Virus record (IMG/VR): IMGVR_UViG_2541047954_000002
Span: 1 to 43,165 of that record
Source: a virus
Lineage: Duplodnaviria > Heunggongvirae > Uroviricota > Caudoviricetes
DNA: 43,165 nucleotides
Reading direction: 5' to 3' (one strand)
Below, piece by piece: positions 12,526-28,656 of the stretch. Under the pieces are notes generated by a model. That model was not told the DNA's origin, made no database searches, and saw only the letters and a list, made by a program, of their open reading frames with translations. How positions within the stretch are numbered: position 1 is the first letter of the stretch; each line of letters starts with the position of its first letter. Position numbers and translations under genes: made by a program.

Positions 12526-12687
12526 ATGACAAAACGTCGTAAGAAATACCAGGAAAAAGAAGAGATTCGACACCCTGATTCACCTGAGGGATTAGTGGTA
12601 GCCGCAGCAAATAACAGGGCGTTCGCAGAGCGCCTTGTTGGTGTTTACAGACTAGCCAAAGCAGGAGTGAAACATGGGCGTCGTTAA
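12526..12687 (+). CDS. Small basic ORF, 53 aa
   Basis: Hand-found ORF with AGGAG SD 5 nt upstream; overlaps the start of the replication initiator gene. Confidence 0.35.
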   Translation: MTKRRKKYQEKEEIRHPDSPEGLVVAAANNRAFAERLVGVYRLAKAGVKHGRR

Positions 12688-13564
12688 ATTAGCTGATTAC
12701 AGGCATAACCCTGTACAACATCAGGAGGCATCCAGTATGGGGTATGTCTCTATACACCGCCAGTTTATGGACAGCAGGCTCTATAAGGACTCTCAGGCAG
12801 TACATCTTTGGCTTCACTTAATCCTCAAGGCTAATCACGAATCTACTGTCGTCAATACGGATATCGGTCCGATAACTGTTGATCGCGGTCAGATGATAAC
12901 TGGACGCCCGTCGCTGGTCAGAGAAACATTCATCCCCGACAACAAAGTTCGGAGCTTATTACGGACTTTTGAGTCGAAAGGGATGCTTAATATTTGCGCG
13001 ATGGGGAAGAAATTTAGCCTGTTTACAATCGTTAAATATGACGATTTTCAGTCAAAAAATTGTCCAACGGTTGTCCAACAGTTGTCCAACGCAAACACCA
13101 GTAATGGCGCGGCTCTCAGCGGAGATTGTCCAACGGTTGTCCAACAGTTGTCCATAAACAATAATATAAATAATATCTCTAATACTGACGTATTAGAGAG
13201 TGCCACAGCAGACAAAAAGTCTGACAAGAAAAAACCTTCCGTTAGCTGTCAGGATGTTGTCGATGCTTACCACGAAATCCTTCCTGAAGCTCCAAGAATC
13301 CGCGCACTGAATGACAAGCGTAAAAACCAGATCCGAACGTTCTGGCGCAAAGCCGGAGTGATAACCCGCCAGCTTGACGGGCATGGGTTCTCGATGCAGG
13401 ACTGGAGAAATTATTTGAGCTACGTAGGCGAAAATTGCCGATGGATGTTCGAAGAGCGCCCAAACCATCAACGCGGAACTGTCTGGCACAAAAAGGGATT
13501 TGATTTCCTGCTTAACGATAATACCTACCTGAAAGTTCGTGAGGGTGAACACGATGACCGATAA
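12674..13564 (+). CDS. Replication initiator (O-like / P22 gp18-like) with origin iterons inside the coding region
   Basis: Position between cII and the helicase; internal iterons encoding the duplicated peptide CPTVVQQLS; ATGA coupling to the helicase gene. Confidence 0.7.
   Translation: MGVVKLADYRHNPVQHQEASSMGYVSIHRQFMDSRLYKDSQAVHLWLHLILKANHESTVVNTDIGPITVDRGQMITGRPSLVRETFIPDNKVRSLLRTFESKGMLNICAMGKKFSLFTIVKYDDFQSKNCPTVVQQLSNANTSNGAALSGDCPTVVQQLSINNNINNISNTDVLESATADKKSDKKKPSVSCQDVVDAYHEILPEAPRIRALNDKRKNQIRTFWRKAGVITRQLDGHGFSMQDWRNYLSYVGENCRWMFEERPNHQRGTVWHKKGFDFLLNDNTYLKVREGEHDDR
13055..13165. repeat. Replication origin iterons: ~6 copies of TTGTCCAAC in two groups, followed by an AT-rich tract
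   Basis: TGTCCAACGGTTGTCCAACAGTTGTCCAACG and GATTGTCCAACGGTTGTCCAACAGTTGTCCATAAACAATAATATAAATAATATC, read directly. Confidence 0.75.
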
Positions 13565-14990
13565 TTTTTATGCGCCGCCCCATAGCATCGAGGCAGAGCA
13601 GGCGGTGATTGGTGGATTGCTTCTGGATGATGACAGCAGTGAGCGCGTCCAGAAAGTTCTGGCGATGCTGAAGCCTGATTCATTTTACAGCCGACCACAC
13701 AAAATCCTTTTCGAAGAAATAACCAGAATGCACCGTGAGCAAAAGCCAGTAGATGGCCTGACGCTTTTCGATGAACTGGAGCGTAAATCGTTAACGGCGT
13801 CTGTTGGCGGTTTTGCTTATATCGCTGAGATCGCAAAGAACACGCCAAGCGCAGCAAACATCGTTGCCTATGCAATGCAGGTTCGTGAAACCGCAATGGA
13901 ACGCTACGCCATCAACCGCATGACTGAAGCGACGGAATTGCTCTATTCCCGCAACGGAATGACTGCAACGCAGAAGTACGAAGCTATTCAGGCGATTTTC
14001 ACGCAACTGACAGACCATGCAAAAACCGGATCGCGTCGCGGCCTTCGCTCATTTGGTGAGGTCATGGAAGACTGGGTTAGCGACCTTGAGAAGCGATTTG
14101 ACCCATCAGGCGAACAACGGGGAATGAGCACAGGGATCCCATCGCTGGACAGGATGCTGTCACCGAAAGGTCTGGTAAAAGGCTCTCTGTTTGTCATTGG
14201 CGCTCGCCCTAAGATGGGGAAAACGACGCTATACAGCCAGATGGCAATCAACTGCGCAGTGCATGAGAAAAAGCCCGCTCTGATGTTCAGCCTTGAAATG
14301 CCAGGTGACCAGATACTGGAAAAACTGGTAGGGCAGAAGTCAGGTGTTAACCCGAATATTTTTTACCTTCCGGCGACAAATGACGCCGATGACGGCTATC
14401 AGGGTGATTACGATGGTGACTTCAACAGGGCGATCGAAACAGCCAATCGCTTGAGTGAAATCGACCTGCTTTACATCGACGACACGCCGGGATTATCTCT
14501 GGCTCAAATCGTCAGCGAAAGCCGTCGAATCAAGCGAGAAAAAGGATGTGTTGGCATGATTCTGGTCGATTACCTGACACTAATGACCGCTGAGAAGGCC
14601 GATCGCAACGACCTTGCTTACGGCATGATCACCAAAGGACTGAAGAACCTTGCCAAAGAGCTTGATTGCGTTGTTGTGCTTCTGACACAGCTTAACCGCG
14701 CACTGGAAAGCCGAACCAATAAACGCCCATTACCAAGTGACTCACGAGATACAGGGCAGATTGAACAGGATTGCGATTATTGGGTGGGGATCCATCGTGA
14801 AGGTGCTTTTGATGACAGTATTCCACCTGGTGAAACTGAACTAATCCTTCGTCTCAATCGTCATGGCAATACCGGCACGGTGTATTGCATTCAGGCAAAT
14901 GGCGCTATTTATGACACAGACCAACAGTCTGCTGAAATGCGCCGCCGTGAACGTGAGGAACCGCAGTCCAAGAAGAAAGGAGGATTCTGA
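13554..14990 (+). CDS. DnaB-family replicative helicase (P22 gp12-like)
   Basis: N-terminal DnaB-like domain (SIEAEQAVIGGLLLD), Walker A GARPKMGKT, RecA-like C-terminal motifs. Confidence 0.9.
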   Translation: MTDNFYAPPHSIEAEQAVIGGLLLDDDSSERVQKVLAMLKPDSFYSRPHKILFEEITRMHREQKPVDGLTLFDELERKSLTASVGGFAYIAEIAKNTPSAANIVAYAMQVRETAMERYAINRMTEATELLYSRNGMTATQKYEAIQAIFTQLTDHAKTGSRRGLRSFGEVMEDWVSDLEKRFDPSGEQRGMSTGIPSLDRMLSPKGLVKGSLFVIGARPKMGKTTLYSQMAINCAVHEKKPALMFSLEMPGDQILEKLVGQKSGVNPNIFYLPATNDADDGYQGDYDGDFNRAIETANRLSEIDLLYIDDTPGLSLAQIVSESRRIKREKGCVGMILVDYLTLMTAEKADRNDLAYGMITKGLKNLAKELDCVVVLLTQLNRALESRTNKRPLPSDSRDTGQIEQDCDYWVGIHREGAFDDSIPPGETELILRLNRHGNTGTVYCIQANGAIYDTDQQSAEMRRREREEPQSKKKGGF

Positions 14991-19031: not shown

Positions 19032-19106
19032 GGGTCAGTCGTATAAAGGTCATTACGGAAGGCTGTTAACCTTCTTATCGTGGTTCGAGCCCACGCTGTC
19101 CCGCCA
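19032..19106 (+). tRNA. tRNA gene, anticodon GUU by hand folding (tRNA-Asn-like), encoded CCA
   Basis: Hand-folded cloverleaf: acceptor GGGTCAG/CTGTCCC (one mismatch), anticodon stem GAAGG/CCTTC with loop CTGTTAA, T-arm CGTGG-TTCGAGC-CCACG, 3' GCCA. Confidence 0.5.
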
Positions 19107-19111
19107 AACAT

Positions 19112-19187
19112 GCTGGTTTAGCTCCAATGGTAGAGCAGTCGCCTTGTAAGCGAATGGGTAGCGGTTCAAGTCCGTTAACCAGCACCA
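19112..19187 (+). tRNA. tRNA gene, anticodon UGU by hand folding (tRNA-Thr-like), encoded CCA
   Basis: Perfect 7-bp acceptor GCTGGTT/AACCAGC, D-arm GCTC..GAGC, anticodon loop CTTGTAA, T-arm AGCGG-TTCAAGT-CCGTT, 3' ACCA. Confidence 0.65.
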
Positions 19188-27172: not shown

Positions 27173-28426
27173 ATGGCTAACCAATTAGCAAAAGACCTTG
27201 AAATCATGTTCGAAAACTACGTTGAAGGCTTTGAGGCCGCCTGCGTAGTTTCCCGTAACGCTAAAAAATTCCGTCCCGGTGATACAGCAATGCAGCGAGC
27301 AGGTGATGTTCTGTATCGTCCGCAGCATTACCACATGAACATTGAGGAAGGCCTCGATCTCAGCAGCAAAACGCCTACAGCACTGGTTCAGCGCCTTGTT
27401 CCTTCTGTGTTCAAGGAGCCGAAAAACATTCTGTACACTCTGGATGCGCGTGAAATGCGTGACCCTGAGCATAAAACTGAAGCTGGTCGCGCCGCAGGTA
27501 TGCGCCTTGCTGCACAGATTGACTCTGACCTGATTTCCATGGTTACGCAGCGTGCTACTAACGTGATCACAATGTCTGACTCAACCACAGGTACACAGGG
27601 CCGTGATTTGTGGAACTGTGCGGCAGGTATTGATGCCACCATGACGGCGATTGGTGTACCGCAGGGTATCAACCGTCGCTCTTTCTGGAACCCCTTCAAC
27701 TACAAAGACCTTGCTGGCGAGCTTGGTCACCGTGCCTACGCTCAGGGCGCAACCCTGACAGCATACGAAAAAGCGCAGATCCCTCCGGTTGCTTCCTTTG
27801 ATAGCTACAAGACCGATATTTCTGGTCGATTACCGAAAGGAAGCGCTGAATCCTTGACAGTATCAGGCCAACCTGAACACAAGGTTGAAGCGAAAGATTC
27901 AAATGGTATGCCAGTTGATAACCGACAGGGGACTATTACGGTATCTGCATCTGGCTTGCAGGTTGGTGATGCGTTCACCATTGCCGGTGTGAATTCCGTA
28001 CACCAGATCACAAAAGATACCACCGGGCAACCGCAGGTATTCCGTGTTCTGGCTGTTAGCGGAACTACCGTAACAATCTCTCCAAAGATTCTCCCTGTTG
28101 AAAATACCGATGTTGCGAGTCGTCCATATGCAAACGTCGATGCCAAACCGGCAGAATCAGCAGCAATCACCATTCTCAACAAGAACGCAGCACCTGCTAA
28201 CCTGTTCTGGGCTGATGGTTCTGTTGAGCTGATGTACGGCAAACTAGCGTTCCCGACTGGTCAGGGTCCACAGGTAATGACAGCAACCACCGAGCAGGGC
28301 GCTACGCTGATCATGTCTTACGCCTTCGACCACATCAAAGGCGTAACCACTGCTCGTTTCACCACTCTGTACGGTTGCTCTGTACTTGTTCCTGAATATA
28401 CGGGCATCGTTATTGCCGGGCAGTAA
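27173..28426 (+). CDS. Major capsid (coat) protein, P22 gp5-like, 417 aa
   Basis: Size and position; segment ILNKNAAPANLFWADGSV parallels the P22 coat; strong terminator immediately downstream. Confidence 0.85.
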   Translation: MANQLAKDLEIMFENYVEGFEAACVVSRNAKKFRPGDTAMQRAGDVLYRPQHYHMNIEEGLDLSSKTPTALVQRLVPSVFKEPKNILYTLDAREMRDPEHKTEAGRAAGMRLAAQIDSDLISMVTQRATNVITMSDSTTGTQGRDLWNCAAGIDATMTAIGVPQGINRRSFWNPFNYKDLAGELGHRAYAQGATLTAYEKAQIPPVASFDSYKTDISGRLPKGSAESLTVSGQPEHKVEAKDSNGMPVDNRQGTITVSASGLQVGDAFTIAGVNSVHQITKDTTGQPQVFRVLAVSGTTVTISPKILPVENTDVASRPYANVDAKPAESAAITILNKNAAPANLFWADGSVELMYGKLAFPTGQGPQVMTATTEQGATLIMSYAFDHIKGVTTARFTTLYGCSVLVPEYTGIVIAGQ

Positions 28427-28433
28427 TTTTGGT

Positions 28434-28456
28434 GGGGCTTCGGCCCCATTTTTATT
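28434..28456 (+). terminator. Rho-independent terminator after the coat gene
   Basis: GGGGCTTCGGCCCC hairpin followed by ATTTTTATT. Confidence 0.65.
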
Positions 28457-28467
28457 GGGAGAAGACA

Positions 28468-28656
28468 ATGGCACGAACAATGCTCTATAAGCCTGGCAAC
28501 ATGATCACCTGTGGTCAGTTTGCTGTCGATTACATCATTGTTGATGACGAAGAAGTTAAATCTCACCTGAAAAAAGGTTGGGTAAAAACTCCTGAAGAAA
28601 CCGCAACGAAGCAAAAAGTGGCTAAGGCGGAAGAAGATGGCGAAAACGAAGGGTGA
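28468..28656 (+). CDS. Hypothetical small protein, 62 aa
   Basis: GGGAGAAGACA SD before the ATG at 28468; between coat and gp4. Confidence 0.4.
   Translation: MARTMLYKPGNMITCGQFAVDYIIVDDEEVKSHLKKGWVKTPEETATKQKVAKAEEDGENEG

Follow-up and report, generated by a model that had tools for sequence, protein, structure and literature searches.

The stretch analysed here (the window) comprises 43,165 nucleotides (nt) of a Caudoviricetes virus, positions 1 to 43,165 of the IMG/VR record IMGVR_UViG_2541047954_000002, and this report concerns a candidate replication origin made of short direct repeats (iterons), an AT-rich tract and an inverted repeat, all of which lie inside a replication initiator gene. 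A preliminary description of the DNA had already taken the repeats for the likely prophage origin. The features of the locus are the following:

12674 to 13564, plus strand: replication initiator gene of 296 amino acids (aa), matching phrog_345 'replication initiation O-like' with E 1.3e-84 over residues 1-296
13060 to 13092, plus strand: iteron triplet 1, with units at 13060, 13071 and 13082 and the core TGTCCAAC; codes for C130-N139
13093 to 13125, plus strand: spacer of 33 bp between the triplets, CAAACACCAGTAATGGCGCGGCTCTCAGCGGAG
13126 to 13158, plus strand: iteron triplet 2, with full units at 13126 and 13137, the last unit TTGTCCATAAA (13148) being truncated and entering the AT-rich tract
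13155 to 13175, plus strand: AT-rich tract TAAACAATAATATAAATAATA, with one C in 21 nt
13176 to 13199, no strand assigned: perfect inverted repeat TCTCTAATAC-TGAC-GTATTAGAGA, with 10-bp arms (13176-13185 and 13190-13199) and a 4-nt centre

Exact copies of TTGTCCAAC were found at 13060, 13071, 13082, 13126 and 13137 and nowhere else in the 43 kb (five observed against 0.40 expected, a count that none of 100 shuffles reached), and the sixth unit is truncated and reads TTGTCCAtaaa at 13148. The conserved core inside the 11-bp unit is the 8-mer TGTCCAAC. The unit spacing is 11 bp, with the second triplet starting 66 bp after the first, and the 30-nt block at 13059-13088 is 100% identical to that at 13125-13154. 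The peptide CPTVVQQLS is coded twice, at residues 130-138 and 152-160, with the three units of each triplet falling in three reading frames (CPT / VVQ / QLS). The preliminary description is therefore accurate where it placed about six repeats in two clusters inside the initiator open reading frame (ORF), translated as this duplicated peptide and followed by an AT-rich tract. Its right border lies at 13165, but the element runs on for about 35 bp to the end of the inverted repeat at 13199. The 60-nt interval 13140-13199 has a GC content of 0.27.

Outside the cluster the core occurs only once in the window, as a stray TGTCCAAC on the minus strand at 322-329, and no second iteron cluster was found in the window. 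The DnaA-box consensus TTWTNCACA is absent from both strands of the window, although shuffles give an expectation of 4.4 matches, and Rfam gave no RNA family at the locus. Promoter-like scan matches at the iterons were set aside as by-products of TGGACA, the reverse complement of the core, which resembles a -35 box.

From its N-terminus, the initiator has a putative DNA-binding domain (about residues 22-127, nt 12737-13054). A linker predicted to be disordered (residues 129-188, nt 13058-13237) connects this N-domain to the C-terminal domain (residues 189-293). The AlphaFold2 model, built from a shallow alignment, is confident for residues 31-128 and 189-293, with a predicted local distance difference test (pLDDT) score of 76-89 for the N-domain and 80-91 for the C-domain, whereas the linker (129-188) scores below 50. 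The iterons, the AT-rich tract and the inverted repeat code for residues 129-176, which belong to the linker only, and in this model the candidate origin falls exactly in the low-confidence stretch that separates the confidently folded domains. Residues 22-187 match PHROGs with the label 'DnaD-like helicase loader' (3e-24 to 2e-10), whereas the Pfam and NCBIfam DnaD models gave no match and the winged-helix matches of Foldseek were weak. The start of the gene at 12674 is supported by the homologues, since they keep the N-terminal extension including an invariant R10.

Conservation and covariation among relatives

A total of 134 loci, 97 of them distinct, were gathered from genome and viral collections. 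The layout of 3 x 11 bp, a 33-bp spacer, 3 x 11 bp, an AT-rich tract and a palindrome recurs in many Enterobacterales (about 90 distinct loci), and in nearly all loci the cores sit at offsets of 42, 53, 64 and 108, 119, 130 after the N-domain. The position of the AT-rich tract is likewise conserved, and the truncation of the last unit comes after CCA in all relatives, whichever core type they carry.

The level at which this conservation acts was examined in nine lineages that share the TGTCCAAC core (36 pairs), the N-domains of which are 73-100% identical to that of the window protein. The iteron cores were found to be identical in all 1656 pairwise comparisons, including 540 of 540 third-codon positions, whereas identity is 50% at the synonymous third positions of the N-domain, 75% at the three nucleotides between cores and 74% in the spacer between the triplets. 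Selection on the protein cannot account for the 11-bp period because each unit of a triplet falls in a different reading frame. As judged from these alignments, the constraint acts on the DNA, independent of the reading frame.

The segment is nevertheless translated, its 66-bp unit duplicates in frame and the linker is predicted to be disordered, as would be expected if the repeats were a mere duplicated protein segment in a low-complexity linker with no function as DNA. However, the basic period of 11 bp is not a multiple of 3, and third-codon positions within the cores never vary, whereas the residues coded between the cores do (V/D/G/N at 133, Q/R at 136). Relatives retain the geometry while core and peptide both change, and a frameshifted variant, described below, retains the DNA repeats and loses the peptide. 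This explanation is effectively refuted and we give it next to no credence.

At least eight core types were found among the relatives, namely TGTCCAAC, TTACCAGC in HK620 and HK022, GTGCCAAC in Klebsiella, Raoultella, Pantoea and Yersinia, TGTCCAGCC in CobraSix and Enterobacter, AATCCAA, AGCCAAC, TTCCCAGAA and TGTCCGA. The GTTG..CAAC symmetry of the TGTCCAAC core is not retained in the other types. With GTGCCA[A/T/G] treated as one group, the nearest neighbour shares the core type in 55 of 59 cases when neighbours are chosen by the N-domain, compared to 20 of 51 when they are chosen by the C-domain. In 33 pairs the iterons differ even though C-domain identity is at least 90%, and N-domain identity is at most 73% in every pair with different core types. 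By these comparisons the core type follows the N-domain and not the C-domain.

Identity profiles place a recombination joint at about 13155-13185. The O gene of HK620 is 40-77% identical to the window to the left of this joint and 97-100% identical to the right of it, and two other loci (L133 and L010) show the reverse pattern, with identity falling at the joint. On these profiles the AT-rich tract is the site of the mosaic joint between a module formed by the N-domain and the iterons and a module formed by the C-domain.

Distant homologues in metagenome-assembled genomes (MAGs) of Spongiibacteraceae, Elusimicrobiales and Bacteroidia carry four to five tandem xGAACAAC units, also 11 bp apart and in the equivalent position. 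Two other distant homologues were observed to have a 12-bp, in-frame period in the middle of the gene, one in a Glaciecola MAG (L050; GACACC, 3+3) and the other in Prevotella sp. oral taxon 376 (L055; nine tandem TGAGCAAACAAA).

The inverted repeat and the number of iterons

The inverted repeat of the window, taken as single-stranded DNA, folds with -9 kcal/mol (z -5.6). All Enterobacterales relatives have a perfect inverted repeat as their best hairpin within 260 nt of the first iteron, with arms of 9-10 bp and the centre T[AG]A[CA]. This palindrome lies about 10-25 nt beyond the last iteron, and its offset from the first iteron in two-triplet loci is mostly about 117-123 nt (108 and 144 at the extremes). 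Among the relatives the arms take at least 16 different sequences, all of them perfect, and the arm sequence goes with the C-domain side of the joint.

Pairing statistics were taken from an ungapped alignment of 28 sequences, 27 of them distinct. Pairing was found in 96.3% of the cells and the inner nine pairs are 100% Watson-Crick, with no G-T among them. All ten pairs vary on both sides, with 90 compensatory cells over the whole stem and not a single one-sided pair change. The covariation score is 0.847, compared to 0.197 for shuffles (none of 500 reached the observed score) and 0.08-0.20 for slid controls. A palindrome or hairpin of DNA is favoured over an RNA stem because the Watson-Crick symmetry is this strict.

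A role in RNA deserves attention at this point, as the inverted repeat could be the intrinsic terminator of a leftward antisense transcript, with the AT-rich tract supplying the U-rich tail. A minus-strand scan flags it, with 10 pairs and the tail TATTATTTAT, and the record of phage L has a minus-strand terminator at the same place. However, the stem has only three G-C pairs, and the 27 distinct sequences contain neither a G-U wobble in the inner nine pairs nor a one-sided change, which is unusual for an RNA stem. A palindrome with a centre of 4 nt likewise occupies the equivalent position in the origins of lambda and P22, and no leftward promoter is known downstream. We consider a terminator unlikely.

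On this comparison, the palindrome is the third conserved element of the putative origin and the counterpart of the palindrome in the lambda ori, and it most likely acts via DNA structure (a hairpin or a cruciform) once the region has been unwound. Whether it is an obligatory structure-forming part of lambdoid origins, extruded as a hairpin or cruciform on unwinding for helicase entry or priming, is a tentative idea that we put forward as possible but doubtful. Conceivably, this structure is also what SMC-type defences (Lamassu/DdmABC, SbcCD) sense when a phage origin fires.

Homologues of the initiator fall into length classes of 274, 296 and 318 aa in the E. coli type and of 277 and 299 aa in the Salmonella type. 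These classes correspond to one, two or three copies of the 22-residue unit CPTxVQxLSNANTSNxAALSGD, and the unit gained or lost is 66 bp, or 22 codons, consisting of one triplet and the 33-bp spacer. Only this 66-bp unit can be changed in frame and a single 11-bp iteron cannot. Among 120 listed proteins, 14 carry one copy, 76 two copies and 23 three copies, and, judging by motif count and repeat blocks, every one of the 134 loci aligned in register has the two-triplet form, with two exceptions. Examples at the DNA level are one locus with a single triplet (L111) and another with three (L110). Iteron number among related prophages is thus 3, 6 or 9, with the two-triplet form dominant, and the earlier suggestion that such repeats can drive in-frame expansion or contraction of the initiator is borne out by these natural variants (274, 296 and 318 aa for one, two and three triplets).

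The copies inside one protein carry identical variant residues, a pattern that fits recent unequal exchange between the triplets, occurring independently in the E. coli and Salmonella lineages. Between units 2 and 3, both triplets of the window (13059-13154) also carry A (CAACAG), the rarer variant, where most relatives have G in one or both; the shared variant suggests that the sequences of the two triplets were homogenised by conversion or unequal exchange.

The frameshifted variant is found at L140:690-790 (a Logan SRR23153152 contig; protein P0039), which lacks one iteron and one A of an upstream A-run, 12 nt in all. It therefore has five iterons and a run of 29 linker codons in another frame, after which the original frame resumes. 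The linker peptide seems to be dispensable if this contig, a single assembly that may be an artefact, is real.

Repeat number might also be a contingency (slippage) locus that tunes or switches the initiator. Natural variants with one, two and three triplets and one with five iterons would suit such a locus, as would the variant residues shared within proteins, which point to recent unequal exchange. However, the common variants are all in frame and nothing is switched on or off, while the two-triplet form dominates. A phase-variation switch was rejected since the variants keep the frame, and the contingency reading as a whole is very improbable in our view. The series makes better sense as a varying number of sites for the initiator, comparable to the variation inside the O gene, where lambda has four iterons and Shiga toxin (Stx) phages have six (Nejman 2009; Kozlowska 2020, PMC7466680). 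In the six-iteron origins of Stx phages the variation in iteron number alters the linker length of the initiator in frame, as it does in the Sf6-type family studied here. Stx phages, however, carry a true lambda O, whereas the Sf6-type family changes by 66-bp blocks and arrives at 3, 6 or 9 iterons.

Genomic setting and proposed origin function

Judged by its best matches, which are CUS-3, Sf6 and their relatives, the window is a P22-like (CUS-3/Sf6-type) E. coli prophage. The gene order around the locus is an S24-type repressor (minus strand), a Cro-like gene, CII, an ORF of 53 aa, the 296-aa initiator, a DnaB-type helicase and NinB. The two direct neighbours of the initiator gene are as follows:

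12526 to 12687, plus strand: small conserved ORF of 53 aa (phrog_1331, HK97 gp53 / P22 orf48 type), always found 5' of the initiator gene
13554 to 14990, plus strand: DnaB-type replicative helicase gene of the P22 gp12 / Sf6 gp44 type (Pfam DnaB 3.5e-31, DnaB_C 3.5e-60)

The helicase ORF is listed from a GTG at 13539 and includes the ATG at 13554, which is the equivalent of the start of Sf6 gene 44. This start overlaps the stop codon of the initiator gene, with no gene between the two; both genes belong to a lambdoid early-right operon, and the helicase is the presumed partner of the C-domain of the initiator. The initiator is 98% identical to Sf6 gene 43 in protein and 98.7% in DNA, and 81% identical to phage L gp18 in protein. 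Matches to the initiator gene were found in 377 of 5426 complete E. coli genomes, many of them annotated as 'hypothetical protein', and the gene is thus an annotation gap in E. coli genomes. Elsewhere in the prophage, the interval 19032-19187 on the plus strand holds adjacent phage-borne genes for tRNA-Asn (GTT) and tRNA-Thr (TGT).

The interval 13060-13199 is very probably the replication origin of the prophage, situated inside the prophage's own initiator gene, where the disordered linker between the two domains is coded. The preliminary description had proposed an origin here, and that proposal is supported by the frame-independent conservation of the cores, the covariation with the N-domain, the domain layout, the neighbouring helicase and the annotations of Sf6, HK620 and L. 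In the mechanism we propose, the winged-helix-like N-terminal domain (about residues 22-127) would bind the six TGTCCAAC iterons. The sites are one helical turn apart and the triplets six turns apart, which would put them roughly on one face of the helix, where the bound initiators may oligomerise and distort the DNA. The resulting nucleoprotein complex would stress and melt the adjacent AT-rich tract (13155-13175), the presumed DNA-unwinding element, and the C-terminal domain would bring in the phage DnaB-type helicase coded just downstream. The palindrome at 13176-13199 probably acts as a DNA structure next to the melted tract.

An experimental precedent is the Bacillus phage SPP1, where the replisome organiser G38P binds direct repeats in gene 38; theta replication from this site has been reconstituted with G38P, G39P, G40P and the host replisome (PMC6316719). 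The N-domain of the window protein is 28% identical to G38P (residues 20-126 against 2-111, pairwise BLASTP E 6e-13), and tblastn also matched SPP1 G38P in the phage collection (E 7e-6). The G38P N-domain ends at the same Y-D/E-x-x-Q boundary as that of the window (about 107 residues), and the repeats of SPP1 gene 38 (L138 1559-1646) begin directly after the part coding for the N-domain, as in the window, with a DnaB-family helicase downstream. The repeats of SPP1 have another sequence and spacing, however, the C-terminal parts are unrelated, and SPP1 has a second origin, oriR.

SPP1 also supplies the basis for a different view, in which the initiator binds the repeats but replication starts elsewhere, the repeats serving autoregulation, 'handcuffing', a fork barrier or a second site like oriR. 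There are two G38P-binding regions in SPP1, and G38P at oriR has been proposed to stall forks (PMC6316719); initiator binding inside its own gene could moreover throttle its own transcription. In the window, however, there is no second cluster but only the stray core at 322-329, and a second origin like oriR was for this reason rejected. The cluster is flanked by an AT-rich tract and a palindrome, as in the mapped lambda origin, and it is the intragenic oriL of SPP1 that supports reconstituted theta replication (PMC6316719). Binding without initiation at this site is improbable.

Several points weigh against the origin reading. Our literature search yielded neither binding assays nor origin mapping nor replicon tests for the Sf6-type initiator family. 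The initiator has no Pfam match above the gathering cutoff, no NCBIfam match and no PDB sequence match, and all matches of its N-domain in a Foldseek search against PDB, although to winged-helix DNA-binding proteins, are non-significant (best E 0.025). A simple scan labels the palindrome a weak minus-strand terminator. The link to SPP1 G38P is distant and concerns the N-domain only, and SPP1 has a small separate loader, G39P, located between organiser and helicase, whereas none was found in the window. Direct recruitment of the helicase is assumed in our mechanism because of this lack of a separate loader gene.

If the reading holds, the origin of a common prophage type has been located, although the practical value of this is modest. 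For annotation, the rule that emerges is an N-domain followed by 3 + 3 iterons at 11 bp, an AT-rich tract and a palindrome. The locus also illustrates how a DNA-level function can fix the residues of a protein linker, and how modules for specificity (N-domain and iterons) are shuffled against those for the partner (C-domain and helicase). The covarying palindrome and the series of 3, 6 and 9 iterons are the only additions to published knowledge and might interest researchers working on replication and phage defence.

Comparison with known systems

The repeats are already known as a predicted origin in near-identical phages. In the record of Shigella phage Sf6 (AF547987) a rep_origin at 28385-28480, labelled as repeats reminiscent of the lambda origin, maps to 13059-13154 of the window, and the records of coliphage HK620 and Salmonella phage L (MW013502) have equivalent putative-origin features. 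The origin annotations of all three stop at the repeats, with the AT-rich tract and the palindrome lying outside them. The repeats of gene 18 in phage L / ST64T have been called the likely origin (Zaworski et al. 2021, PMC8022706). For L/P22 hybrids, citations are limited to indirect genetics (PMC8022706). A text query of the literature with the repeat sequence returned unrelated primers only. Sf6 gene 43, L/ST64T gene 18 and gene O of HK620/HK022 have 11-bp repeats at the equivalent place and a DnaB-type helicase downstream, and are essentially the same system as that of the window. HK620/HK022 O is 97-99% identical to the window protein in the C-domain and 48% in the N-domain, and its iterons are TTACCAGC.

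Plasmid-type iteron origins combine a Rep protein, iterons, a DnaA box and a DNA-unwinding element, with the DnaA boxes adjoining the iterons, whereas the prophage window has no match to the DnaA-box consensus.

The arrangement was said at the outset to mirror that of lambda, and this is true of the layout but not of homology. In both systems the origin lies inside the initiator gene, between a DNA-binding N-domain and a partner-binding C-domain, and contains iterons, an AT-rich tract and a palindrome with a 4-nt centre. The palindrome of lambda, GTCAGAGAATTC-tggc-GAATCCTCTGAC, lies directly to the right of its AT-rich tract, and the N-domain and the iterons are swapped as one module among lambdoid phages. 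BLASTP of the initiator against lambda O, however, gave nothing (best E 3.6), and the Phage_rep_O model of Pfam did not match. Lambda has four iterons of about 18 bp, each an inverted repeat, spaced 20-24 bp apart, whereas the window has six asymmetric direct repeats of 11 bp. The partner in lambda is lambda P together with the host DnaB, whereas in the window it would be the phage DnaB-type helicase, and the C-domain is unrelated to that of lambda O.

The two systems meet in the Erwinia phage vB_EhrS_59 (L006:1138-2789), the 'O' protein gene of which combines the N-domain of the present family, iterons of the GTGCCA type and the palindrome with the C-domain of lambda O (70% identical to lambda O 178-299). 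A gene of the lambda-P type follows in place of the DnaB-type helicase. From this chimera and the SPP1 precedent, the N-domain and its repeats appear to do the job that the N-domain of lambda O and the iterons of ori-lambda do in lambda. The C-domain would likewise match its helicase or loader partner, since the lambda-type C-domain of the Erwinia phage precedes a lambda-P-type gene.

The origin in P22 gene 18 (L141:2340-2480) has four dyad-symmetric iterons of about 20 bp (TTTACCnnATCGGTAAA), an AT-rich tract with a 14-bp tandem repeat and the palindrome CCCCC-TAAA-GGGGG, and L gp18 is reported to be only 25% identical to P22 gp18 (PMC8022706). The TAAA loop of P22 is the loop of many palindromes in the Sf6-type family, and the two have the three-part layout in common. 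This layout of iterons, AT-rich tract and palindrome is common to three types of initiator that have little or no sequence similarity to one another.

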